A stretch of DNA of 64,000 nucleotides from a virus (IMGVR_UViG_3300024344_003081); one strand, 5' to 3'. Numbered from the stretch's first letter, positions 44,786 through 61,396 are shown. The notes: a model not told the origin generated them from the sequence alone. Program-made: numbers and translations.

Positions 44786-45051
44786 TGTTAAAATACGAAA
44801 TAGATTTTAATAAAGGAAATTATGTTGTTGGACATTTTACTTTCAGAGAATGTGCAATGTGCGATAAAGCAAAGTCTTTATTAGATAAACATAAAAAACA
44901 ATACATGTTCATTCAAGCAGATAAGAAACTGTTTGGTAAAATATTGTCAGTTACAGGAAGTAAAAAGGTTCCTCAGATTTTTTTGGAAGGTAAGGTTTAT
45001 CTGACTGTAGGAGAATTAGAGGAAGCATTAGACAAAAATGGAGATATCTGA
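44785..45051 (+). CDS. Glutaredoxin
   Basis: CAMC active site; KVPQIF. Confidence 0.8.
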   Translation: MLKYEIDFNKGNYVVGHFTFRECAMCDKAKSLLDKHKKQYMFIQADKKLFGKILSVTGSKKVPQIFLEGKVYLTVGELEEALDKNGDI

Positions 45052-45190
45052 AAAAATTGAATGTACATTTTGTTCAAAAATGTACGAAGTTATTATTCAT
45101 GAAGAAGACGAAGAAAAAGTACAATTTTGTTCTTATTGTGGAGAGATGATAGAACTACAAGAAGAGGACGATGATAACTGGGATACATGA
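45038..45190 (+). CDS. Small zinc-ribbon protein (50 aa, missing from ORF track)
   Basis: MEISEKIECTFCSK...FCSYCGE...DDDNWDT*; two CxxC motifs. Confidence 0.65.
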   Translation: MEISEKIECTFCSKMYEVIIHEEDEEKVQFCSYCGEMIELQEEDDDNWDT

Positions 45191-45752
45191 TTTGCATGTG
45201 GGAATTGATTATTCACTAACCAGTCCAGCAGTAACAGAATGTGATGGTGAATGGAAATATGAAAACATTAAACATTATTGTTTAGCGAAAAACGGTAGAC
45301 AACTTGATAGATGGGGTTCTTTACATAATATTCAAATCACGGAATATCCTAAATATAACACAGAGATGGAAAGATATTTAGGACTATCTTCTTGGGTAAT
45401 AGAATGTATTGTAAAATATGCTAAAAGACCCAAAATAGTCTATATTGAAGATTATGCCTATGCCGCAAGCGGACAAAGAGTTTTACAAATTGCGGAAAAT
45501 ATGGCAATTTTAAAACATACTTTACTCAATTATAAACTGAGGTATGAAATGATACCTCCTACAGTAATTAAAAAATACGCATCCGATAAGGGAAACGCAA
45601 ATAAAGAATTAATGTATGATTCTTTTGTGTCTGACACACAGAGAGAACTTACAAAAGAATTTCAGACAAAGTGTGATAAAAATCCCATTTCAGATATAGT
45701 TGACTCTTATTGGATTTGCAAATACGGATACGAAAATGGCACAAATACCTGA
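45171..45752 (+). CDS. RuvC-like RNase H-fold nuclease (resolvase-like)
   Basis: VGIDYSLTSP, IEDY, PPTVIKK..GNANK, SDIVDSYWI. Confidence 0.7.
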   Translation: MITGIHDLHVGIDYSLTSPAVTECDGEWKYENIKHYCLAKNGRQLDRWGSLHNIQITEYPKYNTEMERYLGLSSWVIECIVKYAKRPKIVYIEDYAYAASGQRVLQIAENMAILKHTLLNYKLRYEMIPPTVIKKYASDKGNANKELMYDSFVSDTQRELTKEFQTKCDKNPISDIVDSYWICKYGYENGTNT

Positions 45753-46101
45753 TGAATATGCTAGTTTTGACTTCGGTTTTTCCGCAGTAGATGATGAAGA
45801 ATATAAAGCAAAAACTACAGAAGTAGAAAAAAAGATTGAACAAGTAGAAGCAAAATCAAAAGATTTTTCGGCATTAGAAAAGAAAATAGATTCTGCTATT
45901 AAAGAAATCGGTTATAAAAAAGATTATTTAGAAGAAAAATATGTAGAAGATATGAGCAAAATTGAACAATTAATTTTACCTCTTTTATATAATCTTATGA
46001 AAAATCCAGATAAGGATTATATTTATTGGCCGAATCGTGAAGAAATTATTACTAAACAAATAGAAAAAATTAAAGATGTGACTCAAGATTTATCTAAATA
46101 G
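45736..46101 (+). CDS. Conserved hypothetical protein
   Basis: FDFGFSAVD...LILPLLYNL.KNPDKDYIYWPNR. Confidence 0.65.
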   Translation: MAQIPDEYASFDFGFSAVDDEEYKAKTTEVEKKIEQVEAKSKDFSALEKKIDSAIKEIGYKKDYLEEKYVEDMSKIEQLILPLLYNLMKNPDKDYIYWPNREEIITKQIEKIKDVTQDLSK

Positions 46102-46104
46102 TTT

Positions 46105-46445
46105 TATCGATGATACTGTAGAGTAGCATTTAAGACATCGGTGCGATTCCGATCAGCTCCACCAAAGGAACATCAATGAGTAGTGCAGATATGGCCATAT
46201 TAGTAGTATTAATTGTAATTGGCATAATTATGACGGGAACTTATTTTTATTTTGGTGGGTGATTCTTTGGAGGGGCTGTAATAGAATTCGATTGGATGTG
46301 ATTATACAGAGGAGATCATCTTGACAGATGTAAAATGTCATTTAAATTAATCGCAAATAATAACGATTATTATTCAGCACAAGTGGCATTAGCCGCTTAA
46401 TCGCTGGCGGGCTTATGATTGTGCCTTGGAACAGAAACAATCAGA
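46105..46445 (+). ncRNA. ssrA: Circularly permuted (two-piece) tmRNA: acceptor piece ~46105-46164, coding piece 46272-~46445, tag ANNNDYYSAQVALAA at 46353-46400
   Basis: T-arm ATCGG-TGCGATT-CCGAT and CAGCTCC-A-CCA (to 46164) lie upstream of GGGGCTG (46272); acceptor stem has the G3:U70 alanine pair; tag ends LAA*; outer boundaries approximate. Confidence 0.9.
46176..46262 (+). CDS. 28-aa single-TM peptide inside the tmRNA intervening segment
   Basis: AAGGAA RBS; MSSADMAILVVLIVIGIIMTGTYFYFGG*. Confidence 0.55.
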   Translation: MSSADMAILVVLIVIGIIMTGTYFYFGG

Positions 46446-46464
46446 CACACACAACACACACACA
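46445..46464 (+). repeat. AC-dinucleotide-rich tract before an RBS
   Basis: ACACACACAACACACACACA then TAAGGAG. Confidence 0.8.
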
Positions 46465-46476
46465 TAAGGAGAAAAT

Positions 46477-46704
46477 ATGTCTAATCCATATGAATTAAGA
46501 TTTAGACTTTTAGAGATGGCTTCTGGTTATCTTTATGATCAACAGCAAAAACAAACACAATTCGCTATTGATGCATGGGAATTTGCAAAAGAAGAAGGTA
46601 CAGCAAATATGGAGTTGTTTAAAGACCTCCAACCCAAAAATTATACTATTGAAGACATAAAGAATAAAGCTACTGAACTTTATGAATTTGTTGAAAAAAA
46701 ATAA
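46477..46704 (+). CDS. Conserved small hypothetical protein
   Basis: MSNPYELRFRLLEMA...KATELYEFVEKK; strong RBS. Confidence 0.7.
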   Translation: MSNPYELRFRLLEMASGYLYDQQQKQTQFAIDAWEFAKEEGTANMELFKDLQPKNYTIEDIKNKATELYEFVEKK

Positions 46705-46747
46705 TTGGCGCACCCCATCTGTAATGGATGGGGTTCTTCAGGAGAAA

Positions 46748-47140
46748 ATGATCAGCTTAACAGAAAAAGCCGCTAGTAAAATATTAAGCATTATGAAAGA
46801 CCAAAAAGTATCTGGTGAGACAGTATTACGGGTTGGAGTTAAGGGCGGAGGATGTTCAGGATTTACTTATACAGTAGACTTTGATACTAGAAAAGGAAAG
46901 TTTGATTTAGAGTTTGAATCATATGGTTTAGGAATTTTATGTGACAAAAAGAGTCATCTATATATTAAAGGCACGGAAATTGATTGGTCAGATGATTTAA
47001 ATGATAGAGGATTAAAATTTAACAATCCTTCAGCTAAAGGTTCTTGTGGCTGTAGGACTTCTTTTATGTACGAACATACGGAGACTAAAACTGAAACAAC
47101 ACCTAATTGGATGGGAATGAACAATGCAGACTACTTGTGA
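46748..47140 (+). CDS. iscA: HesB/IscA A-type Fe-S carrier
   Basis: GGGCSGFTY...GTEID...FNNP..KGSCGCRTSF; RBS CAGGAG. Confidence 0.9.
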   Translation: MISLTEKAASKILSIMKDQKVSGETVLRVGVKGGGCSGFTYTVDFDTRKGKFDLEFESYGLGILCDKKSHLYIKGTEIDWSDDLNDRGLKFNNPSAKGSCGCRTSFMYEHTETKTETTPNWMGMNNADYL

Positions 47141-47519
47141 ATTAAAAATAACAGAAAAGGCCGCAGTAGAATTTAAACAAATGTGTATTGGTGAAGATAA
47201 ACATTGGGCGGATGCATATTTAAGAATAGGAGCAAATTCAGGCGGATGTTCTGGTTGGAAGTATAGTTTAGATTATGAAGATACAGTAGAGTCTACAGAT
47301 TTAATTTTCGAACAGCATGGTGTTAAATTAGTAGTAGACGAATACATTCTTAATGATATAATTGGTGATGTAGAAGTAGATTATAAAGTAGGAAATTTAG
47401 TAGAACAAGGATTTATATTTAAACGGCTCAAATTTGAGCATGTCTGTGGATGTGGAGAGAGTTTTACACCAGTAAAAGATATCCCTGCAGACGGTAAACA
47501 AAAATTAGGATGGAATTAA
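47124..47519 (+). CDS. iscA: Second HesB/IscA-family Fe-S carrier
   Basis: ITEKAA...GGCSGWKY...CGCGESF. Confidence 0.85.
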   Translation: MQTTCELKITEKAAVEFKQMCIGEDKHWADAYLRIGANSGGCSGWKYSLDYEDTVESTDLIFEQHGVKLVVDEYILNDIIGDVEVDYKVGNLVEQGFIFKRLKFEHVCGCGESFTPVKDIPADGKQKLGWN

Positions 47520-47520
47520 T

Positions 47521-47910
47521 ATGGCATATTCAGAAAAAGTTATAGATCATTTTCAAAATCCAAAAAACATCGGAAGTTTTGATAAAAATGATCCAACTAT
47601 TGGAACTGCTCTTGTAGGCGCTCCAGAGTGTGGCGATGTAATGAAATTACAGATAAAAGTGGGTGATAATGGAACAATTGAAGATGCTAAGTTTAAAACA
47701 TTTGGTTGTGGAAGTGCAATAGCAAGTTCTTCACTTGCAACTGAATGGGTAAAGGGAAGAACTTTAGATGAAGCATGGGCGGTAGAAAACACCGAAATCG
47801 TAGAAGAATTATCATTGCCTCCAGTAAAAATTCATTGTTCTGTTCTTGCAGAAGATGCGATTAAAGGAGCAATAGCAGATTATAAGAATAAACATGAAAT
47901 AAATACTTAA
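47521..47910 (+). CDS. iscU: Fe-S scaffold IscU
   Basis: YSEKVIDHFQNPKN, APECGDVMKLQI, FGCGSAIASSS, LPPVKIHCSVLAEDAIK. Confidence 0.95.
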   Translation: MAYSEKVIDHFQNPKNIGSFDKNDPTIGTALVGAPECGDVMKLQIKVGDNGTIEDAKFKTFGCGSAIASSSLATEWVKGRTLDEAWAVENTEIVEELSLPPVKIHCSVLAEDAIKGAIADYKNKHEINT

Positions 47911-47955: not shown

Positions 47956-48069
47956 ATGTGTAATAATCCAGAATGCAAATGTACAGATTGCACCTGTGAT
48001 CCATGTGAATGTTCGTCTGAGAGTCCTTGTGGATGTGAATTTGATGATGAACAAGTAGCACCAGTTTAA
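47956..48069 (+). CDS. Metallothionein-like Cys-rich peptide (37 aa, missing from ORF track)
   Basis: AAGGAG RBS; MCNNPECKCTDCTCDPCECSSESPCGCEFDDEQVAPV*; 9 Cys including four CxC. Confidence 0.75.
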   Translation: MCNNPECKCTDCTCDPCECSSESPCGCEFDDEQVAPV

Positions 48070-51677: not shown

Positions 51678-52763
51678 ATGAATAAGTTAAAAATCCTTGC
51701 TGTACTCATTTTGAGTATAGCATTAATTGGTATTGCTAACGCAAAAAAGCAAGTATCAGTTGGTTATGTTCTAGTGGGACCAAAAAATGATGGCGGATGG
51801 TCAATGCGACATCATCAAGGATTTCAATCCTTAACAAAACATGGGTATGAAGTCTCAATGGTAGAAATGGTACCAGAGTCAGAATCCCAAAAAGTATTCC
51901 GTAAACTCGCAAGAAAACACGATATTGTCTTTGCAACTTCATTCGGTTATATGGATGGAATGGTGAAAGCCGCAAAGAAAAATCCTGATACAATTTTCAT
52001 GCATGCCACGGGTTACAAAGGTAACGATACAAATATGGACAACTACGTTTGTCATTCATTCCAAGCACGATATCTTACAGGAATTGCGGCTGGAATGTTG
52101 TCAAAAACAAATAAGATTGGTGTAGTTGGTTCACATCCGATACCTGAAATTATTCGTAATATTAATGCTCTAACTATTGGAGCCCAAACAGTAAATCCAG
52201 ACATTGAAGTTAATATTGTATGGATTAACTCATGGTTCGATCCACCTAAAGATATGGATGCGGCTAAAGCACTTCTTGATGATGGAAATGATATTCTCTT
52301 TACAACAACAGATTCACCTAGTGTAGTAACTCTTGCACAACAAGCGTGGAAAACTGATGGTAAAGAAGTATGGAGTATGGGAAATGATGCGCCTATGGGA
52401 AGTAACGGACCAGATCGATACATCACGGGTATGATGTTCAACTGGAATGTTCTTTACAAACATATAGTAGATCAACTTGCACATGGAAAACTCAAAATGA
52501 ATCAAAGGTGGAATTGGGGTTTGAAAGAAAATTGTGTAGGACTATCACCATGGGGAGCAAATGTTCCTGGCTCTGTTGTTAATAAAGTTGAAACAGTTAA
52601 AATGAACTGGATTAATGATGATTTGGATGAATGGTATCCATTCTCTCAAGGAATTACGAAACAGGATGGTTCAACAATTCCCGCTGGTACTCTTAAAAGA
52701 CCAGAATTAGAAACAATGCAATACTTTGTAAAAGGTGTTGTTAATAAATTCCCTACTAATTAA
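51678..52763 (+). CDS. BMP-family (purine nucleoside-type) substrate-binding protein
   Basis: Signal peptide; VGPKNDGGWS..H, ATSFGY, MHATGY, SWFDP, TTDSP. Confidence 0.88.
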   Translation: MNKLKILAVLILSIALIGIANAKKQVSVGYVLVGPKNDGGWSMRHHQGFQSLTKHGYEVSMVEMVPESESQKVFRKLARKHDIVFATSFGYMDGMVKAAKKNPDTIFMHATGYKGNDTNMDNYVCHSFQARYLTGIAAGMLSKTNKIGVVGSHPIPEIIRNINALTIGAQTVNPDIEVNIVWINSWFDPPKDMDAAKALLDDGNDILFTTTDSPSVVTLAQQAWKTDGKEVWSMGNDAPMGSNGPDRYITGMMFNWNVLYKHIVDQLAHGKLKMNQRWNWGLKENCVGLSPWGANVPGSVVNKVETVKMNWINDDLDEWYPFSQGITKQDGSTIPAGTLKRPELETMQYFVKGVVNKFPTN

Positions 52764-52776
52764 TGGAGAGTAAAAA

Positions 52777-53718
52777 ATGAAAAATATTTTAGCAATTATT
52801 GTAGCATTCTTTATGATGATGAGTGTTACTTATGCCAAAGAAAAAGTGACCCTGTTAATGGATTGGTTTCCACAGGGCAATCAAAGTGGATTCTGGCAGG
52901 CTCAATTTGATAATGCACATAATCCAGACCTTGAAATTACAATTAAATCGGGCGGACCAAAAGTTAGAACTACTACTGCAGTAGCATCTGGTCAAGTAGA
53001 ATTTGGTCTTAATGGATCAGATAGTGTAATGATGGCTAATGCAAAAGGTGCAGGACTTAAAGCTATTTTCGTTAGTCTTGGTCATGTTCCATACACGTTA
53101 GTTTATCATCCAAATACTGGTGTAAATAGTGTTCAAGATTTAGATGGTAGACCCTTTGCAGTTGTGATGGGTATTACATATTGGAAATGGGTAAAACATA
53201 CTTATAATTTAAATAAAGTAAAAGAATTTCCATTGACTGGTGATCTTGGATTGTTTGCAAGAACTCCACAACAATTTCAACAAGGATATTCTCTTTTCTT
53301 ACCAGCAAGACTGGATGCTAAGGGAGTTGATAATGAGCAAATTACAGTTGAGTCTTTGGGTTATAGACCATATAGTGTTTTGTTCACAAGCGATAAGTTG
53401 ATCAAAGAAAATCGTGCATTAGTGCAGAAAGTTGTTGATCGTCTTAGTATTTCTTTTCACAAGTCTTTAGTTGATCCAAAACCAACTAGAGATTTTATTC
53501 TTTCAAAGAGTAAAAAAGTAAATGCTGAAATTCATAACAATGCTCTTGAACTTATGAAGGCAGATTTTCTTCCCGATGATTGGAGCAAGATTGGATGTCA
53601 AGATCCTCAACGATGGGTTGAATTAGCAAGTCAATTGAAAGAAGTTAACGTATTACCTGCGGATTTCGATCCACATTCGTCATATGATACTTCATTTAAA
53701 AAGGGATGTTTTAATTAA
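52777..53718 (+). CDS. NMT1/THI5/SsuA-like ABC substrate-binding protein
   Basis: Signal peptide; LLMDWFPQGNQSG, GGP, VEFG. Confidence 0.8.
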   Translation: MKNILAIIVAFFMMMSVTYAKEKVTLLMDWFPQGNQSGFWQAQFDNAHNPDLEITIKSGGPKVRTTTAVASGQVEFGLNGSDSVMMANAKGAGLKAIFVSLGHVPYTLVYHPNTGVNSVQDLDGRPFAVVMGITYWKWVKHTYNLNKVKEFPLTGDLGLFARTPQQFQQGYSLFLPARLDAKGVDNEQITVESLGYRPYSVLFTSDKLIKENRALVQKVVDRLSISFHKSLVDPKPTRDFILSKSKKVNAEIHNNALELMKADFLPDDWSKIGCQDPQRWVELASQLKEVNVLPADFDPHSSYDTSFKKGCFN

Positions 53719-53731
53719 TTGAGAGTTTATT

Positions 53732-54436
53732 ATGATTGACATTTCAGGTGTTACTAAACATTTTGATGATGTCCATGCATTAGCAGAAATAAATTTAGAC
53801 ATTAGCACAGGAGAGTTTGTTTCTATAGTTGGACCCTCTGGTTGCGGAAAGTCTACCTTATTAAGAATTATTGCGGGTTTAGTTTCTACTCATGGAAGAG
53901 TATTAAAACCTGATAAAGGTGCTTTTGTGTTCCAAGATTCTGCATTACTTCCATGGAGGAATGTGCAGAAAAACATAGAACTTTTAATGGAATTAGAACT
54001 TATCCCTAAAGCAGAACGAGTCGAAAAGGCTCGTTCTGCCCTCTCTCAAGTCGGACTAACTGGATTTGAAAAAAATTATCCTCATCAATTATCTGGTGGC
54101 ATGAAAATGAGATTGTCTCTAGCAAGATCATTAGTATTAAACCCTGATTATCTTCTTATGGATGAACCATTATCTGCGGTAGATGAATTAACCCGTGAAG
54201 TTTTACAAGAAGAGATATATGCATTATGGAAAAAAGATAAATTTACTGCTATACTTGTGACACATAATGTTCCAGAAGCAGTTTATCTTTCTAATAGAGT
54301 AGTTATTATGTCTCCAAGACCTGGAAGTATTACACATATTGTTGATGTTCCTTTTAAGAACAGAAATCAAAAATTGAGATCATCAAATAAATATCATAAA
54401 CTTATTAATAATATTTCTGGAAAATTAAGATCATGA
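53732..54436 (+). CDS. ABC transporter ATP-binding subunit (TauB/SsuB-like)
   Basis: GPSGCGKST, VFQ, LSGGMKMR, LLMDEPLSAVD, VTH. Confidence 0.95.
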   Translation: MIDISGVTKHFDDVHALAEINLDISTGEFVSIVGPSGCGKSTLLRIIAGLVSTHGRVLKPDKGAFVFQDSALLPWRNVQKNIELLMELELIPKAERVEKARSALSQVGLTGFEKNYPHQLSGGMKMRLSLARSLVLNPDYLLMDEPLSAVDELTREVLQEEIYALWKKDKFTAILVTHNVPEAVYLSNRVVIMSPRPGSITHIVDVPFKNRNQKLRSSNKYHKLINNISGKLRS

Positions 54437-55194
54437 AAAATATAATTCCACCAATTCTAGTCTTAATAATATTTCTATTTGTGTGGACACTAGCGGCCCA
54501 TCTTTATAATATGTCTTTTCTTTTACCAAATCCCCTAGAAGTTTTACAAGCATTTATAACAGATTTTGATATGGTTATCGGTGGACTTTGGATTACTTTT
54601 CAAGAAGCATTATATGGTTATCTTTTAGCAATCGGTATTGGTATTACTTCTGCGGCAATTATGAGTCAATCAAAAATATTAGAACGCAGTTTCTATCCCT
54701 ATGCAATATTATTACAAACACTTCCTGCAGTTGCAGTAGCTCCATTGATTGTTCTTTGGTTTGGATTTGAAATGAGATCAGTTGTTATTATAAGTTTAAT
54801 TATTTCATTATTTCCAATCATTAATAATACTTTGTTAGGATTAAAATCAACATCTATTAGTTTAGTTGAACTTTTTCAAATGCATAATCAATCACGTTTT
54901 GTTAATTTTTTCAAACTTCGTTTACCAGCCGCTACTCCTAATGTTATTGCAGGATTGAGAATATCAGCAGGATTATCTGTTATCGGTGCAATCGTAGGAG
55001 AGTTTATTATTGGCTCTGGAAGTGAAGGTGGCGGATTAGGTGTAATGATAATGTATGCACAAGCAGATTTAGCAACTGCATTAGTAATAGCACTTATTTT
55101 TACTGCTACTGGTTTGGGGTTTGCTTTCTTTATGACAGTATCAACATTGGGACACTATCTTTTACATAACTGGCACGAATCAGAGTTAGCATGA
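54433..55194 (+). CDS. ABC transporter permease (TauC/SsuC-like)
   Basis: About 6 TM; EAA-like loop KLRLPAATPNVIAGLR; GAIVGEF. Confidence 0.92.
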   Translation: MKNIIPPILVLIIFLFVWTLAAHLYNMSFLLPNPLEVLQAFITDFDMVIGGLWITFQEALYGYLLAIGIGITSAAIMSQSKILERSFYPYAILLQTLPAVAVAPLIVLWFGFEMRSVVIISLIISLFPIINNTLLGLKSTSISLVELFQMHNQSRFVNFFKLRLPAATPNVIAGLRISAGLSVIGAIVGEFIIGSGSEGGGLGVMIMYAQADLATALVIALIFTATGLGFAFFMTVSTLGHYLLHNWHESELA

Positions 55195-56246
55195 AATCAA
55201 CAATAGAACGCAGAAAAACGGGATTAATTTATTGGGATATGGATTGGTCTTCTGGATGTTATACTTTGTATGCACCACAAACTGGTAATGGTTTAGTAAA
55301 ATTAATTGCTATTGATGGCGATACTGTTCACGAATGGAAACTTCCAGTAAGACCCGGTCGAGATGCAGTAATACTAGATTATGTACAAGGTCGTAAATCT
55401 GGAAATCTTGGTTACAATGGTAGTCATGCAAAGTCAGCAAATCTTTATCCATCATGGGATATTTGGCATGGTGGACATTTCATGGAAGTTGCACCAAACG
55501 GAGATATTGTATGGGAACATGAAGATATCTATCATCACCATGATGCTCAATGGTTGCCAAATGGAAATTTAATCTATACAGTTGCGGCTGAATGGAATGG
55601 TAAACAATCAGATATTGTAAAAGAAGTAAATCCAAAAGGTGAAGTAGTTTGGGAATGGAGAGCATGGGAACATCTTACTAGAAAAGAGTGGTCTATACAT
55701 GAATGTTTTAATGATGATCATTGGCCAATGATTAATGGTGTTTATCAAGATGGGTTTCTACTTTATTTGAGTTTACGAACAACATCGGGTATTATTGCAG
55801 TAAATAAAAATACAAAAGAAGTAATTTGGGAATTGAAGTATCCTTTTGTAGCACAACAGCATGATCCATCAATAACAGAACAGGGAAATTTATTGTGTTT
55901 TGATAATGGAAATATTCGTCCTAGTTCAATTCATCATTCTCGTATTGTAGAGTATGATACAGTATCAAAAGAACTTGTATGGGAATATAAAGACCCGATG
56001 CCTTCTGCATTTTTTTCTCCGTATATGGGAAGTGTTCAAAAACTTTGGAATGGAAGTTATTCTATTTGTGAAAGTGCATTTGGAAGAATATTCGAAGTAA
56101 CTTCAGAAGGCGAATTAATGTGGGAATATGTTATACCAGAATTCGCAGAATACCCCTCACCACTAAATAACTATATAACAGGATCACATAATAGTTGTTT
56201 TAAAGCACATCGTTACGAATCAAATACGATAACGAATATTCTCTAG
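55191..56246 (+). CDS. Aryl-sulfate sulfotransferase (ASST)-like beta-propeller protein
   Basis: HHHDAQWLPNGN, QQHDP, FDNG, SRIVEYD, GRIFEV; repeated W-E-W/Y blades. Confidence 0.75.
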   Translation: MKSTIERRKTGLIYWDMDWSSGCYTLYAPQTGNGLVKLIAIDGDTVHEWKLPVRPGRDAVILDYVQGRKSGNLGYNGSHAKSANLYPSWDIWHGGHFMEVAPNGDIVWEHEDIYHHHDAQWLPNGNLIYTVAAEWNGKQSDIVKEVNPKGEVVWEWRAWEHLTRKEWSIHECFNDDHWPMINGVYQDGFLLYLSLRTTSGIIAVNKNTKEVIWELKYPFVAQQHDPSITEQGNLLCFDNGNIRPSSIHHSRIVEYDTVSKELVWEYKDPMPSAFFSPYMGSVQKLWNGSYSICESAFGRIFEVTSEGELMWEYVIPEFAEYPSPLNNYITGSHNSCFKAHRYESNTITNIL

Positions 56247-56261
56247 GAGGGTGAATAAAAA

Positions 56262-57539
56262 ATGATCGGATTCAAAAAGAATCGATGGGACAATATAACA
56301 CGTCCTTATACAGAAGAAGATGTAGACCGGTTAGGGGGGTCTCTCAAAATAGAATATACTCTAGCAAAAACAGGAGCAGATAAATTATGGAACAGACTAC
56401 ATTCTAAAAATCGAAATTATGTAAATGCATTAGGAGCATTAACAGGAAATCAAGCATTGCAACAAGCAAAAGCAGGATTAAAATCTGTTTATCTCAGTGG
56501 TTGGCAAGTAGCAGGAGATGCAAATGATAGTTTAGAAATGTATCCAGATCAATCACTATATGCAACAAGTAGTGTACCCACAGTAATTAAAAAAATCAAT
56601 AATACATTTATTCGTGCAGATCAAATTCAAACAATGGAAGGAACAGGAGATATAGATTATTTTCTTCCTATTGTTGCTGATATGGAATCGGGATTTGGTG
56701 GAGTACTTAATACACATGAATTAATGAAAGACATGATTGAAGCAGGTGCCGCAGGTGTACATTTAGAAGATCAATTATCTTCTGCTAAAAAATGTGGACA
56801 TATGGGAGGAAAAGTTTTAGTACCTACTCGGGAAATGATTTCTAAACTTATTTCAGCAAGATTTGCGGCAGACATAATGGGCGTTGATACAGTAATAATT
56901 GCAAGAACAGATTCATTAGCAGGAGCATTATTGTCTTCTGATTCTGATCCTTATGATCATAAATTTATTGAAAAAAAACAGTGGAACCACATGCTTCCAC
57001 CGAAAGAAGATAGAACTGAAGAAGGTCTTTTTAGAGTAAAAGCAGGAATGGAACAAGCAGTTTCTAGAGGACTTGCATATGCACCATATTGTGATTTAAT
57101 TTGGATGGAAACATCTTTACCAGACCTGGGAGAATGTAAAGAATTTATACAAGAGATTCGTAAAGAGTTTCCTGAAAAAATGTTTGCATATAATTGTTCT
57201 CCATCATTTAATTGGAAAGCAAAATTAAATGATACAGAAATACGTGATTTTCAAGATAATTTGGGTGAATTGGGATGTAAATATCAGTTTATAACTCTTG
57301 CTGGTTTTCATAGTTTAAATTATAGTATGTTTGATTTAGCAAGAAAATATAAAAAAACAGGAATGACTGGATTTGTAGACTTACAACAAAAAGAATTTGA
57401 AGCACAGGATAAGGGTTTTACTGCAGTAAAGCATCAACGTGAAGTTGGGGCGGGTTATTTTGATGCAGTTGGGCAAATTTGTACAAATAGCAATACTTTG
57501 AGTGCAGTTGAAGGATCAACTGAACAAGAGCAATTTTAG
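56262..57539 (+). CDS. aceA: Isocitrate lyase
   Basis: [65 protein letters not shown]. Confidence 0.95.
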
Positions 57540-57549
57540 AAGGAGTAAA

Positions 57550-58632
57550 ATGAAAAGTGGAGATGTGGCAACAGGTGTAGATGTATCAAAAGAAACAAGT
57601 GTTGGAAATGAAGATGTTGGCGCAAGTGCAGAAGCCCATGCAGAAGCAGGTGTAGAAGTAACCGATTCTAGTGTAAGTGCAGAAGCAGAAGTTGGCGCAA
57701 GTGCAGAAGCACATGCAGGTACTACAGTAGGTGGAGTTGATTTAGAAGCAGAGGCATCAGTAGAAGCAGAAGCACATGCAACGGCAGGTGCAGAAATTAC
57801 AGATACAGATGTGAGTGCAGGAGCAGAAGTTGGTGCAAGTGTAGAAGCCAGTGTGGAAGCAAGTGCAGGATCAGATACTACAATAGGTGATACAGGTATT
57901 GATGTAGGAGCAGAAACTTCAGTAGGAGCAACTGCAGAAGCACATGTAGGAGCAGAAGCAGAAGCAACTGCTGGACTTCATGGAGTAGAAGGACATGCAG
58001 GAGCAGAAGTTGGTGCAAGTGTTGGTGTAGAATCAGAATCATCTGTTCAAGTTGGTGCGGCAGAAGCAACTGGAAGTGCAGGAGTAAGTATTGGAGTGCA
58101 AGCTGGTGCAGAAGTCGGTGGAGGCGCAACTTTTGATGAGGGAACGATTAGTATGGGAGTTGATGGACATATTGCGTTACTTGCTGGTGTGGATCTTGAT
58201 TTAGAAGTAGATATTGATACTAAAGAAGCATTGAGAGAAGCAAAAGATGCGGCCCAAGAAGCACAAAAACTGGCGGATGAAGCAAAAAAAGCGGCTTTAG
58301 CACATGATAAAGAAGTTGCTGAAGCAAAAAGATTAGCAGAAGAACATGCTAAAGAAGTAGCAAAAGCCGCTCAAGAGAAAATTCTGAAAGATAAAGAATA
58401 CGCCGAAGAGAAGGCACGAAAAGCAAAAGCAGAAGCAGAAGAAAAAGCTAGACAAGCGGCGGAAAAAGCTAGACAAGCAAAAGAGGCCGCAGAAAGAGCG
58501 GCCGCAAAGAAAGCTGAAGAAGCTAAAAAAGCCGCGGAGAATACGGCTAAAAAGGCGAAAAAGACAACAAAGAAAACAACAAAAAAAATAACAAAAGCAT
58601 TTAGTACGAAAAAGAAAAAGAAGAAAAAATGA
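57550..58632 (+). CDS. Bipartite repeat protein: acidic (G/A)xE(A/V) beta-repeat domain plus Ala/Lys/Glu helical tail with basic end
   Basis: AGGAG RBS before ATG 57550; repeats ASAEAHAEAG/AGAEVGASV; KKTTKK...KKKKKK end. Confidence 0.65.
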   Translation: MKSGDVATGVDVSKETSVGNEDVGASAEAHAEAGVEVTDSSVSAEAEVGASAEAHAGTTVGGVDLEAEASVEAEAHATAGAEITDTDVSAGAEVGASVEASVEASAGSDTTIGDTGIDVGAETSVGATAEAHVGAEAEATAGLHGVEGHAGAEVGASVGVESESSVQVGAAEATGSAGVSIGVQAGAEVGGGATFDEGTISMGVDGHIALLAGVDLDLEVDIDTKEALREAKDAAQEAQKLADEAKKAALAHDKEVAEAKRLAEEHAKEVAKAAQEKILKDKEYAEEKARKAKAEAEEKARQAAEKARQAKEAAERAAAKKAEEAKKAAENTAKKAKKTTKKTTKKITKAFSTKKKKKKK

Positions 58633-58635
58633 AGA

Positions 58636-58989
58636 ATGCAAGATTTAAATATTAGATGTATTATACATAAATCTTCATTGATTGAATATTTTTATAAACA
58701 TACACTTGTTATTCAAGATGAAGAACATATAGATCCATTAATAGAATTTCAAGATGATTCTTGGTTACTTTATTCTTCAAAGGTCCCTAAACATAAAACG
58801 AGTTTGATTCCTCCAACTCTTCCTTTGAAAGCTATAAGACCTGTAGTAGATTCTTTGACTTTATATTATATTAAAAATTCATTAGTGATGCCTTGTTTTG
58901 ATTTATTAAAAACTACTATGGAAATTGATTTTGGTATAGTAGAAGAAAGTAAAGAAATTGTTATCACTAATATAAAAACTAAATACTAA
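58636..58989 (+). CDS. Hypothetical protein
   Basis: ORF. Confidence 0.5.
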   Translation: MQDLNIRCIIHKSSLIEYFYKHTLVIQDEEHIDPLIEFQDDSWLLYSSKVPKHKTSLIPPTLPLKAIRPVVDSLTLYYIKNSLVMPCFDLLKTTMEIDFGIVEESKEIVITNIKTKY

Positions 58990-58990
58990 T

Positions 58991-59896
58991 ATGAGAACAT
59001 TTAAAGGATATCTAACAGAACGCTTTCAAGAGTGGAAAAAACCCAATAAGCCCGCATGGACAGAAGGTCTGTCTACCATGTTATTTGATTTACGTAACTC
59101 GGGCATAAACGATTTACCAATTCCCCTATCTCCCTCTATTTTTTCAAGACTTTGGCCAAAACCCACCCGTTCAAGAGTATTTCATGTAACTGATTATATG
59201 GGAGTCGAAAATTTAGCAAGATTGCAAGGAAGAAAGAAATCAATTTCTGCATTTTATAATATTGCAAGATGGACTATTGAAGATGGTATCAGAACAGATG
59301 GGGGTTATGTTGTTGAATTAGATGCAGATGTTCTCGTTGCGGCACCAGATGATATTTCAAGTATGCCCGATAAGGGGGGAACAAGATGGATTACTTGGAA
59401 TACAATTTTTTCTCAAATGGGACAGAAAAAATATCTTAAAAGAATGGAAGATGATCTGAATGAATTCTTGATAGAACTTATTATGCAATATGCAGATGAT
59501 CCAAAATTTATGCCAGATGTTAAGAAATCTTGGATTGCTCTTGGTAAAGAATATAAGAATGAAAAAAGAATATTGTATGATATTATCAAAGATTATTTTG
59601 ATGGTATAGAGCAAGTTATACGAAAACATGGAAAAGAGTTACACTTTGTCTTTACTAATTATGTTGGAGATAGGCATATGAGGCCAGATCCAGATAGTGG
59701 AGACTATGAAGAATGGGATGAATTAGTAGTTAATAATATTAAGATTATAAAGATTCATGTAGGACCAGAATTTGCACCAGATTTTGAAGAAGATGATGAT
59801 ATAGATGGATTTCCATTTAAGGGTTGGGATGATACTGGTGATTTAACAAAGTATATTGCACAAAAAGTAAAAAAGGATCTTAAAAAAAGAAAATGA
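58991..59896 (+). CDS. Hypothetical protein
   Basis: MRTFKGYLTE N-terminus resembles other late/internal proteins of T4-like phages. Confidence 0.6.
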   Translation: MRTFKGYLTERFQEWKKPNKPAWTEGLSTMLFDLRNSGINDLPIPLSPSIFSRLWPKPTRSRVFHVTDYMGVENLARLQGRKKSISAFYNIARWTIEDGIRTDGGYVVELDADVLVAAPDDISSMPDKGGTRWITWNTIFSQMGQKKYLKRMEDDLNEFLIELIMQYADDPKFMPDVKKSWIALGKEYKNEKRILYDIIKDYFDGIEQVIRKHGKELHFVFTNYVGDRHMRPDPDSGDYEEWDELVVNNIKIIKIHVGPEFAPDFEEDDDIDGFPFKGWDDTGDLTKYIAQKVKKDLKKRK

Positions 59897-59903
59897 AAAT
59901 ATA

Positions 59904-60416
59904 ATGATAATAGATTTTAATAAAAGTATTAGTGAACAATGGAAAGATCAAACTACAACAACATCACATACAGCCGCTACGGCTGATGAAAAAGTTTTAG
60001 CAACATCAACTTTTAATACAGAAATACCATCAACAGTAATTGACATTTATAATTTTCCTAGAAAATCAAAGTCTATTGTTGCAACAAGTAAAAACAAAGA
60101 AAAGTTAATTGAATTATTTGATCTCATTGAATCAAAAAATGAAACGACATTGAAATTTAATGAGTCAGAAGATTTATTTGTTTCTGAAGAATTTAAACAT
60201 TTTAAAGAAGTTCAATTTGATATTTTTCCTCTAACAATGGATGTGAATAAGCTATTTACAGATTTTAAACAACTGTTACAGTTAAAAAATATGACTATTA
60301 TTTGTAAATTTAGTCCAGAAATAGCTTGCCATGAAGTGCTAGATATGTTAAAATATGTGTTAGTATTAAAAAATAAGAATTATCCTGGAATTGTAATAAT
60401 TAAAGATGAGATATGA
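59904..60416 (+). CDS. Hypothetical protein
   Basis: ORF coupled to guaC. Confidence 0.5.
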   Translation: MIIDFNKSISEQWKDQTTTTSHTAATADEKVLATSTFNTEIPSTVIDIYNFPRKSKSIVATSKNKEKLIELFDLIESKNETTLKFNESEDLFVSEEFKHFKEVQFDIFPLTMDVNKLFTDFKQLLQLKNMTIICKFSPEIACHEVLDMLKYVLVLKNKNYPGIVIIKDEI

Positions 60417-61396
60417 GAATACAAGATGATATAAAACTTGATTTTGATGATGTTTTAATCAAGCCTAAAAGATCCACCCTAGTTTCACGTAAAAAAGCAA
60501 ATCTAGAAAGAACATTTAAGTTCAAACATTCACACCATCGATGGACAGGAATTCCTATAATTGCATCCAATATGGATCATACGGGAACTATTGCTATGGC
60601 TCATGTTCTTATGGAATTTCCCATGCTTACAGCATTGTGTAAATTTGTTGAGTCTACAGAATGGGGATGGAATAAAAATATAATAAGAACAATCGGTCTA
60701 GATCAAAATTTAGATGAATTAACTGATGATTCAATGTGGATTTGTCTTGATGTAGCAAATGGATATACAGAACGTTTTAATGATTATGTTGCATTAATGA
60801 GAAGACATGCCGCAACTAAAGATAGAATAATTATAGCAGGAAATGTATGTACACCAGAAGCAACAGAACAAATACTTTTAGCAGGAGCCGATATCGTAAA
60901 AATAGGAATAGGTCCTGGATCGGTGTGTACAACTCGCAAAATGACAGGCGTTGGATATCCACAATTAAGTGCTACAATGGAATGTGGAGATGCGGCCCAT
61001 GGTCTAGGAGGACACATAATTACAGACGGAGGATGCACAGTTGTAGGAGATATTGCAAAAAGTTTTGGAGGTGGTGCAGATTTTGTAATGCTTGGTGGTA
61101 TGTTAGCAGGGCACAAAGAATGCGAAGGAGAAATAGAAGATGACAAAATGATATTTTATGGAATGTCTTCAACTGAAGCACAAATAAAACATCATGGTGG
61201 AAAAAAATCTCATAGAGCATCAGAAGGAAAAGCAGTTATGATAGATTACAGAGGTAATGTAGCAGATACAGTACAAGAAATCTTAGGAGGATTACGAAGT
61301 TCATGTACATATGCTGGTGCAAAATCAATTAAAGACTTGCCCAAATGTACTACATTTGTTAAGGTTAATCGACAGTTAAATACGGTATTTAATTGA
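60413..61396 (+). CDS. guaC: GMP reductase
   Basis: DIKLDFDDVLI.PKRSTL.SR, DVANGY, GIGPGSVCTTR, FYGMSS, RASEGK; no CBS domains. Confidence 0.93.
   Translation: MRIQDDIKLDFDDVLIKPKRSTLVSRKKANLERTFKFKHSHHRWTGIPIIASNMDHTGTIAMAHVLMEFPMLTALCKFVESTEWGWNKNIIRTIGLDQNLDELTDDSMWICLDVANGYTERFNDYVALMRRHAATKDRIIIAGNVCTPEATEQILLAGADIVKIGIGPGSVCTTRKMTGVGYPQLSATMECGDAAHGLGGHIITDGGCTVVGDIAKSFGGGADFVMLGGMLAGHKECEGEIEDDKMIFYGMSSTEAQIKHHGGKKSHRASEGKAVMIDYRGNVADTVQEILGGLRSSCTYAGAKSIKDLPKCTTFVKVNRQLNTVFN

Follow-up and report, generated by a model that had tools for sequence, protein, structure and literature searches.

A permuted tmRNA gene with a putative small membrane-peptide gene in its spacer in an uncultured marine T4-like phage

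The viral contig IMGVR_UViG_3300024344_003081, of which a stretch of 64,000 nucleotides (nt) was analyzed here (the window), carries on its + strand a transfer-messenger RNA (tmRNA, ssrA) gene in circularly permuted order: the 3' half of the tRNA-like domain precedes the 5' half on the same strand, with the CCA end at 46164 and the first nucleotide of the coding piece, G1, at 46272. The spacer between the two pieces holds a small open reading frame (ORF) led by a Shine-Dalgarno (SD) sequence, and its ends are predicted to pair into a stem that closes over that SD. We have hardly any doubt that this permuted tmRNA gene is genuine and that it belongs to a phage. Taken as a whole, the locus is very probably best explained as a functional permuted ssrA of an uncultured marine T4-like myophage, with a spacer that doubles as a small gene.

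Results

A permuted tmRNA outside the lineage-specific families

The only gene that ARAGORN calls in the 64-kb window is a permuted tmRNA on the + strand (46072-46491), whose tag, ANNNDYYSAQVALAA, is followed by a stop. The Rfam model for permuted tmRNAs (RF04321, tmRNA_permuted) aligns over its full length (model positions 1-213) to 46109-46400 with 94.3 bits against a gathering score of 47 (E = 5.7e-17), and is the only Rfam family at or above its cut-off in the window. Direct reading of the sequence finds the 7-bp acceptor stem GGGGCTG/CAGCTCC with its G3:U70 pair, the discriminator A, the CCA end and the T-arm all present (Table 1). A preliminary description had proposed a permuted tmRNA at this place, and both the ARAGORN call and the RF04321 score bear it out; the positions that it gave to the T-arm, to CAGCTCC-A-CCA ending at 46164, to GGGGCTG at 46272, to the G3:U70 pair and to a tag frame at 46353-46400 agree with the sequence, the last also with the tag that ARAGORN reports. 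What that description overlooked was the coding content of the spacer.

None of the three lineage-specific models reaches its cut-off. The best of them, beta_tmRNA (RF01850), gives 41.0 bits for a gathering score of 84; alpha_tmRNA (RF01849, gathering score 50) scores below the beta model, and cyano_tmRNA (RF01851) has no match at its gathering threshold and none of 41 bits or more. The T-loop, UGCGAUU, is close to the general consensus and unlike the alpha form. A blastn search with the tmRNA against 50,697 phage records found no match at E up to 1; for a 3-kb flank the only match was to an IscU-like gene.

Table 1. Features of the tmRNA locus, with positions counted from the first nucleotide of the window.
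Feature	Position	Strand	Basis
Acceptor piece (3' half of the tRNA-like domain): 5' strands of three inter-piece helices, T-arm, acceptor 3' strand, ACCA	46109..46164	+	Rfam alignment, ARAGORN, sequence; 5' boundary approximate
T-arm ATCGG, loop TGCGATT, CCGAT	46137..46153	+	sequence, Rfam
Acceptor 3' strand CAGCTCC (46154-46160), discriminator A (46161), CCA (46162-46164)	46154..46164	+	
Closing stem, 5' strand CCAAAGGAA	46162..46170	+	constrained fold, anchored covariation; includes Shine-Dalgarno AAGGA 46165-46169
Spacer (intervening segment), 107 nt, not in mature RNA	46165..46271	+	between CCA and G1
Spacer ORF, 28 codons + TGA, predicted single-pass membrane peptide	46176..46262	+	ORF list, intact variants, hydropathy
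Closing stem, 3' strand TTCTTTGG, immediately after the ORF stop codon	46263..46270	+	constrained fold, covariation
Coding piece: acceptor 5' strand, D-loop analogue, inter-piece 3' strands, candidate pseudoknot, tag frame, two 3' hairpins	46272..46445	+	ARAGORN, Rfam, alignment of relatives
Acceptor 5' strand GGGGCTG, G3 opposite U	46272..46278	+	sequence, Rfam
Inter-piece 3' strands: P2a 46292-98, P2b 46305-09, P2c 46315-20	46292..46320	+	Rfam, covariation
Candidate H-type pseudoknot CATCT/AGATG + TGAC/GTCA	46317..46340	+	exhaustive search; overlaps P2c
Tag frame ANNNDYYSAQVALAA + stop, resume codon GCA at 46353	46353..46400	+	ARAGORN
Hairpin CCGC...GCGG, loop holding the tag stop codon	46393..46410	+	
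Terminal hairpin, stem TGATTGT/ACAATCA, conserved loop CCTTGGAACAGAA	46416..46443	+	covariation
75-codon ORF, unknown family	46477..46704	+	tied to tmRNA in relatives

A small ORF fills the spacer and a predicted stem closes over its Shine-Dalgarno sequence

The relatives used for comparison comprise 43 distinct oriented sequences from which the two pieces were aligned, and 80 further loci added through the protein encoded downstream. In the window, the ATG of the spacer ORF stands six bases after the AAGGA, and the predicted peptide has a short polar head followed by a hydrophobic stretch of about 20 residues (best 19-residue Kyte-Doolittle mean 2.5); it belongs to no Pfam or PHROG family. 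Most relatives also have an SD and an ORF in the spacer, which falls into discrete forms. Spacers of 15-27 nt have no ORF, one of 42 nt is a deletion derivative, those of 96-114 nt encode membrane peptides of 27-32 codons in several sequence types, and those of 178-214 nt encode a basic protein of 52-59 codons with a conserved C-terminal DWDxDLWD. Since some spacers lack an ORF, the peptide must be dispensable for the tmRNA. The DWDxDLWD protein occurs in the spacers of eight loci with differing acceptor stems (L095, L113, L116, L117, L124, L029, L055 and L079), and this family of spacer genes appears to move between tmRNA backbones.

The commonest spacer ORF, a homologue-like one, has 30 codons and ends in GYDFR: its 27 distinct nucleotide versions contain no stops and no change of length, and variability is highest at codon position 3, lower at position 1 and lowest at position 2. 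The ratio of nonsynonymous to synonymous substitution rates (dN/dS) is 0.31 in this frame, against 0.65 and 1.66 in the other two, which hold 106 and 29 stops. Four variants, of 27-30 codons, represent the subtype of the window's own peptide; each of them is intact, and most of the differences between them are conservative.

When each spacer is folded with the acceptor stem enforced, every spacer class forms 11-18 pairs between its first and last ~18 nt. This closing stem begins with CAA (CA from the CCA end plus the A that follows it) against the UUG just before G1 and runs on through the SD and, in most classes, the AUG, which pair with the last codons of the ORF and the region of its stop; in the window its two strands are CCAAAGGAA (46162-70) and TTCTTTGG (46263-70). 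The 42-nt derivative and the ORF-less spacers of 25-27 nt retain the stem. Its pairing was assessed in an anchored test (112 loci), in which helices are fixed on invariant neighbors and native strand pairs are compared with pairs swapped between dissimilar members: there are 24 distinct closing helices, with a mean of 9.3 contiguous pairs in native combinations versus 6.9 in swapped ones. The closing stem accounts for the conservation at the nucleotide level of the last 15 nt of the 30-codon ORF, and because the SD is paired within it, the folded precursor would hide the ribosome-binding site.

An SD-led ORF filling the spacer, selection of the coding type and a closing stem over the SD are all found for this locus and its relatives. 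We hold it likely that the ORF is translated. That the RNA is real and the ORF untranslated, the frame, the SD-like AAGGA and the conserved 3' end being by-products of the closing stem and of A/U-rich composition, is a reading that we consider unlikely. Conservation here is partly at the RNA level, with the SD/AUG region kept in a single helix with the final ~15 nt of the 30-codon ORF; the SD is base-paired in the folded precursor; there are spacers with no ORF; and an ORF in an intervening sequence of the Coxiella 23S ribosomal RNA (rRNA) appears not to be made into protein in vivo (PMC4990558). By-products of a stem would not, however, readily give a dN/dS of 0.36 in the core codons that lie outside it, nor the excess of variation at position 3, nor a frame free of stops in 27 distinct sequences whose other frames are littered with them. 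Moreover, the slot is occupied by several ORFs of 27-59 codons that are unrelated to one another, and each of them begins 4-11 nt downstream of an SD-like site and stops 1-16 nt short of G1.

Helices and tag are maintained across relatives

Pair counts from a plain MAFFT alignment failed for two of the inter-piece helices, P2b and P2c, and for the terminal hairpin, where subgroups of relatives are misaligned, and for this reason the more variable helices were evaluated with the anchored test. The plain alignment does support P2a, as illustrated by the pair 46129:46296, which is G-U in 18 sequences, U-A in 16, A-U in 6 and U-G in 3. Over the 112 loci, P2a (CATTTAA/TTGGATG in the window) takes the form of 18 distinct helices, with 6.3 contiguous pairs on average in native combinations versus 4.1 in swapped ones, and P2b (CTGTA/TACAG) that of 21, with 5.4 versus 4.1. 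These are the two inter-piece helices that had been proposed from the sequence of the window; the Rfam alignment pairs the same strands, and compensatory changes in relatives uphold them. The Rfam model predicts a third, P2c, between GATGA(T) at 46109-14 and (A)TCATC at 46315-20, for which the test gives weaker support (23 distinct helices, 6.7 versus 5.7 pairs). The terminal hairpin has 20 distinct, fully complementary stems, and at least 7 pairs form in 96% of native combinations versus 7% of swapped controls; its loop CTTGGGAACAGAA is conserved in the family and contains the motif AACAGAA, common to the alpha and beta Rfam consensus. Changes in the acceptor stem are likewise compensatory (GGGGCTG/CAGCTCC, GGGGGTG/CACCTCC, GGGGGCG/CGCCTCC). 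In all, helices are maintained by compensatory changes in about 110 related viral contigs.

The tag is constrained as well. Relatives have 17 distinct tags, all of which begin with AN and end in A[LI][AV]A (that of the window ends in VALAA before its stop), and the context of the resume codon and the stop-codon hairpin are conserved. ARAGORN missed 46 of 75 related loci, in most of which a direct search found the coding piece. For the H-type pseudoknot that the preliminary description placed at 46317-46340 the picture is mixed: it can be drawn, with the pairings of Table 1, and an exhaustive search recovers it in the window's subgroup, where its first strand overlaps P2c, and an analogous one with a single compensatory change (GATG/CATC to GATT/AATC) in another subgroup, and finds none in the largest subgroup of relatives. 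Because helices covary, acceptor stems compensate and tag ends are conserved, the locus is, as far as comparison of sequences can tell, a constrained, working-type tmRNA gene and not a remnant.

By the same token, the tmRNA is improbable as a decoy that soaks up the host's SmpB or alanyl-tRNA synthetase and so blocks host trans-translation, as is reported for the tmRNA-like RNA of mycobacteriophage DS6A, which has no coding sequence (CDS). The idea has a precedent of sorts in a phage tmRNA form that inhibits endogenous tmRNA in Escherichia coli, according to a study cited in PMC11915505, and the host's own tmRNA may have another form. Nevertheless, a pure decoy needs neither tag frame nor resume context nor stop hairpin, all of which the family keeps.

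Traces in marine RNA libraries

Seventeen public marine RNA libraries contain part of the stretch, and four of them were compared, all as assembled contigs. One contig of 445 nt begins exactly at 46272 and extends through the 75-codon ORF downstream, and contigs in three other runs begin at 46284, 46289 and 46314. Another runs from the end of an acceptor piece through a different spacer, which opens with an ORF for a hydrophobic product, into the first part of the coding piece. Contigs of the four runs do not cover 46000-46125 or most of the spacer, a gap from which we draw nothing. We take these contigs as weak hints; they would fit a locus that is transcribed, an RNA that starts at G1 and the existence of a precursor. 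Between the terminal hairpin and the SD of the next ORF lies a CA-repeat tract (46444-46463), similarly CA-rich in relatives; contigs from three RNA libraries differ there in length by 2 nt, at 46454.

Phage context, neighboring genes and the question of the host

All long ORFs of the window lie on the + strand, and its GC content is about 31%. PHROG profiles identify a T4-type replication set made up of DNA polymerase, DnaB/gp41-like helicase, primase, UvsW-like helicase, an SbcC-like nuclease subunit, a CobS-like ATPase and a RuvC-like resolvase, and the 45 kb upstream of the tmRNA form a replication module of T4 type. The tmRNA thus sits within an array of phage genes for replication and nucleotide metabolism. 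ThyX-like and class II ribonucleotide reductase-like ORFs, judged from their translations only, are found just upstream of the tmRNA. The polymerase (gp43) is 52% identical to those of Synechococcus myophages; the identity is 48% with the phages Melnitz and HTVC008M and 45% with C48C1. These values point to a separate lineage near the Kyanoviridae. Judged by these genes, the window is part of an uncultured T4-like marine myophage. As the preliminary description had stated, there is no SmpB in the window, where tblastn gives only chance-level matches (E 2.5 and 3.0) and no SmpB-like frame, and reliance on the SmpB of the host is the natural inference.

The 75-codon ORF that follows the tmRNA is related to 80 IMG/VR loci and belongs to no family in Pfam or PHROGs. 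In nearly all close relatives it is immediately preceded by a permuted tmRNA. Its relatives extend down to ~30% identity, and about a dozen of the distant ones also have a permuted tmRNA upstream, with tags such as ANDEAYALAA, while others have none; the association may reflect conserved synteny or a functional link. A candidate identity as gp33, the gene downstream of the Melnitz tmRNA, was rejected, as the ORF has no match to PF16805 and BLASTP against Melnitz gp33 gives E = 0.41. No glutamine riboswitch was found in 45000-47500 at E up to 5.

Directly after this module (46682-47910) come two tandem IscA/HesB-like ORFs (phrog_17776) and an IscU/NifU-like ORF, which resemble a set of phage genes for assembling Fe-S clusters; between the IscU gene and its counterpart in phage C48C1, DNA identity is 70%. 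A 37-codon ORF with 11 cysteines follows right after them (47956-48069) and is metallothionein-like by eye. Further to the right, 51678-61396 is occupied by genes of cellular type in the orientation of the phage genes: a PnrA/Bmp-like binding protein, an NMT1-like binding protein with the ATPase and permease of an ATP-binding cassette (ABC) transporter, an arylsulfotransferase-like protein, isocitrate lyase (348 bits) and a protein with an IMPDH/GMP-reductase domain. Part of this run is common to a related contig at 97% identity, and the run is either an unusually large auxiliary metabolic cluster or the sign of a chimeric contig.

A 27-nt string covering T-arm and acceptor is identical in 69 IMG/VR contigs, and occurs also in metagenome-assembled genomes (MAGs) labeled Flavobacteriales, Chloroflexota, Acidimicrobiaceae and Candidatus Nitrosopelagicus, an archaeon (L080-L083, the archaeal one being L082). 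The closest of the genomes compared, G001, has a copy of the locus with 96% identity on its contig C40, which is identical to the Chloroflexota MAG contig. Copies scattered in this way over unrelated MAGs are best seen as mis-binned phage contigs and indicate no host, and we accordingly rejected a host inferred from G001. The preliminary description had taken the permuted form as a clue to the host lineage. This does not hold: no lineage cut-off is reached, the MAGs with copies belong to four phyla and include an archaeal one, G001 has a one-piece tmRNA, and Melnitz has an alpha-type tmRNA and an OM43 host (PMC9004378). An alpha-type tmRNA in a host outside the Alphaproteobacteria makes the form of the gene an unreliable host marker.

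The identity of C40 with a Chloroflexota contig and the ABC transporter, isocitrate lyase and IMPDH-like genes in the right part of the window might suggest that the window is bacterial or chimeric and that the tmRNA belongs to a cell, for instance the Chloroflexota MAG with its 96%-identical copy. We find this very improbable: G001 encodes a one-piece tmRNA of its own (tag GKKQLALAA) and SmpB elsewhere than on C40, on contigs with a GC content of 37-40% versus 33% for C40, the same tmRNA recurs in MAGs of the four phyla and on at least 69 IMG/VR contigs, and the 45 kb upstream are of T4 type. No more credible is a decaying passenger, that is, a host ssrA copy gained by recombination or imprecise excision and without a role in the phage, for while phages often carry ssrA fragments as attachment sites (PMC9004378), here both pieces are complete, more than 100 diverged contigs show covarying helices and a conserved tag, the 75-codon ORF remains the neighbor even in relatives whose version of its product is only ~30% identical, and no integrase was found among the scanned ORFs (many ORFs of the window lying outside the scan).

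Discussion

Phage-borne two-piece tmRNAs have been in print since 2022, when that of the OM43 phage Melnitz was described (Buchholz et al., 2022; PMC9004378). The same study counted 53 of them, 50 being aquatic, by ARAGORN prediction in 18,146 phage genomes, and reported a permuted tmRNA for 17 out of 47 Melnitz-like contigs. The tmRNA of the window as such is therefore a further member of a published class, and the novelty that the preliminary description implied for it falls away. Melnitz (MZ577097) and HTVC008M (NC_020484) resemble the window in bearing a permuted ssrA in a marine myophage of Kyanoviridae type, with comparable RF04321 scores (113 and 91 bits, against 94), an ALAA-type tag and, as read from their sequences, a closing stem in which the CCA region pairs with the leader before G1. 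They differ in that both pass the alpha_tmRNA model (107 and 84 bits for the cut-off of 50), whereas the window fails it. In Melnitz, moreover, the gene downstream is gp33 (PF16805), ahead of which and after the tmRNA, not inside it, lies a glutamine riboswitch (L087, 1886-1934); the window has an unrelated 75-codon ORF and no riboswitch. As to the spacer, that of HTVC008M has no SD-led ORF and the Melnitz record annotates none. The Melnitz spacer, of 142 nt (L087 1564-1706; MZ577097 ~46076-46218), has a GGAG followed by an unannotated, ATG-led frame of ~55 codons that crosses G1 into the coding piece.

In cells, two-piece tmRNAs are known from Alphaproteobacteria, a betaproteobacterial lineage and marine picocyanobacteria (Keiler, 2000; Gaudin, 2002; Sharkady and Williams, 2004, as cited in PMC9004378 and PMC11915505). 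The gene of the window shares with them gene order, tRNA-like domain, inter-piece helices, tag frame and the AACAGAA of the 3' hairpin loop, but it is borne by a phage and reaches the gathering score of none of the three lineages. Phage-borne and dependent on host SmpB are likewise the one-piece tmRNAs of cluster C1 mycobacteriophages and the CDS-less form of DS6A, which, unlike that of the window, have the standard gene order and no spacer and come from soil actinophages (PMC11915505). The stem-closed and probably coding spacer is what is new at this locus. In the literature that we searched (including PMC9004378, PMC11915505 and PMC10117765), we found no description of protein genes in tmRNA intervening sequences, the only reported contents of which are a tRNA-Ala gene and a repetitive element (PMC11915505). 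Work on cellular two-piece tmRNAs describes the intervening sequence as discarded, whereas the spacer of the window holds an ORF.

Parallels have to be sought in other RNAs. The intron ORFs of phage T4, with their sequestered ribosome-binding sites ('genes within genes'), are protein genes nested in a structured RNA that hides their SD, so that translation and RNA folding compete. Those are group I introns with homing endonucleases, and here we have a tmRNA precursor with a 28-residue membrane peptide. Closer in setting are intervening sequences of bacterial 23S rRNA that carry an ORF for the S23p protein, as in Leptospira. The one in Coxiella burnetii also has such an ORF in a stem-closed, excised segment of a stable RNA, and we regard it as the nearest published analogue (PMC4990558). 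RNA and protein are different, though, and the Coxiella element is a cellular selfish one; its S23p protein seems not to be made in vivo, whereas the spacer peptides of the present family bear signs of selection.

From the observed gene anatomy, covariation, tag conservation and phage context we infer the following course of processing, charging and tagging, and a benefit to the phage. A single precursor would be transcribed within the + strand gene array, and its acceptor strands (46154-60 and 46272-78) would pair. Host tRNA-processing enzymes would then cut at G1 (46272) and trim to the CCA (46164), leaving an acceptor piece of ~56 nt and a coding piece of ~174 nt joined by three helices. 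With the alanyl-tRNA synthetase, SmpB and EF-Tu of the host, this RNA would enter stalled ribosomes and append ANNNDYYSAQVALAA, a degradation tag of the ClpXP type. The phage may gain by the freeing of ribosomes and the recycling of amino acids while host mRNA decays in infection. We think it probable that the tmRNA is active in trans-translation.

The closing stem, as an extension of the acceptor stem, would make the peptide translatable only before closure or on opening, for example during transcription, and spacer translation and tmRNA folding or processing would be mutually exclusive in any one molecule. As a speculation, the long quasi-continuous helix that results (7 + 1 + 3 + ~10 pairs) could be the substrate of a nuclease specific for double strands. 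More tentatively than the rest, and with doubts of our own, we put forward that the precursor may be a dual-function RNA, with the spacer as messenger for the membrane peptide, or for other mini-proteins in relatives, and a switch between translation and maturation that would couple ribosome availability to tmRNA supply, and the spacer an exchangeable slot for small genes.

Several points weigh against the explanation of the locus as a functional phage ssrA with a coding spacer. The selection test rests on the sister class of 30-codon ORFs, the window's own subfamily having four variants only, and some relatives do with ORF-less spacers. The contig end at 46272 is equally well explained by an assembly break where variable spacers meet conserved sequence, DNA can contaminate RNA libraries, and all the RNA evidence consists of assembled contigs. 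No promoter or terminator stands out above shuffled controls, the sole terminator-like site on the + strand being the stop-codon hairpin. The candidate pseudoknot before the tag clashes with P2c in the window's subgroup. Minimum free energies of the two arms folded together are weakly better than those of shuffled arms, and a swap test of whole-arm duplexes is also weak (p = 0.01). Last, the fit to the SmpB of the host is assumed.

Taken alone, the tmRNA adds another lineage to a published class, and with it the knowledge that the two-piece tmRNAs of marine phages are not all of the alpha type and that the form of the gene is a poor guide to the host. It also bears on the 19 permuted tmRNAs that the tmRNA database paper lists in archaeal MAGs and suspects to be mis-binned bacterial contigs (PMC11915505): mis-binned phage contigs are a concrete alternative source for at least some of the archaeal and cross-phylum cases. 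The spacer goes further. If its peptide is made, a segment that has always been treated as discarded in the maturation of a stable RNA would be a messenger, with translation structurally tied to tmRNA processing, and many small phage proteins would be added to those known, skipped so far by gene callers because they lie inside an RNA gene.

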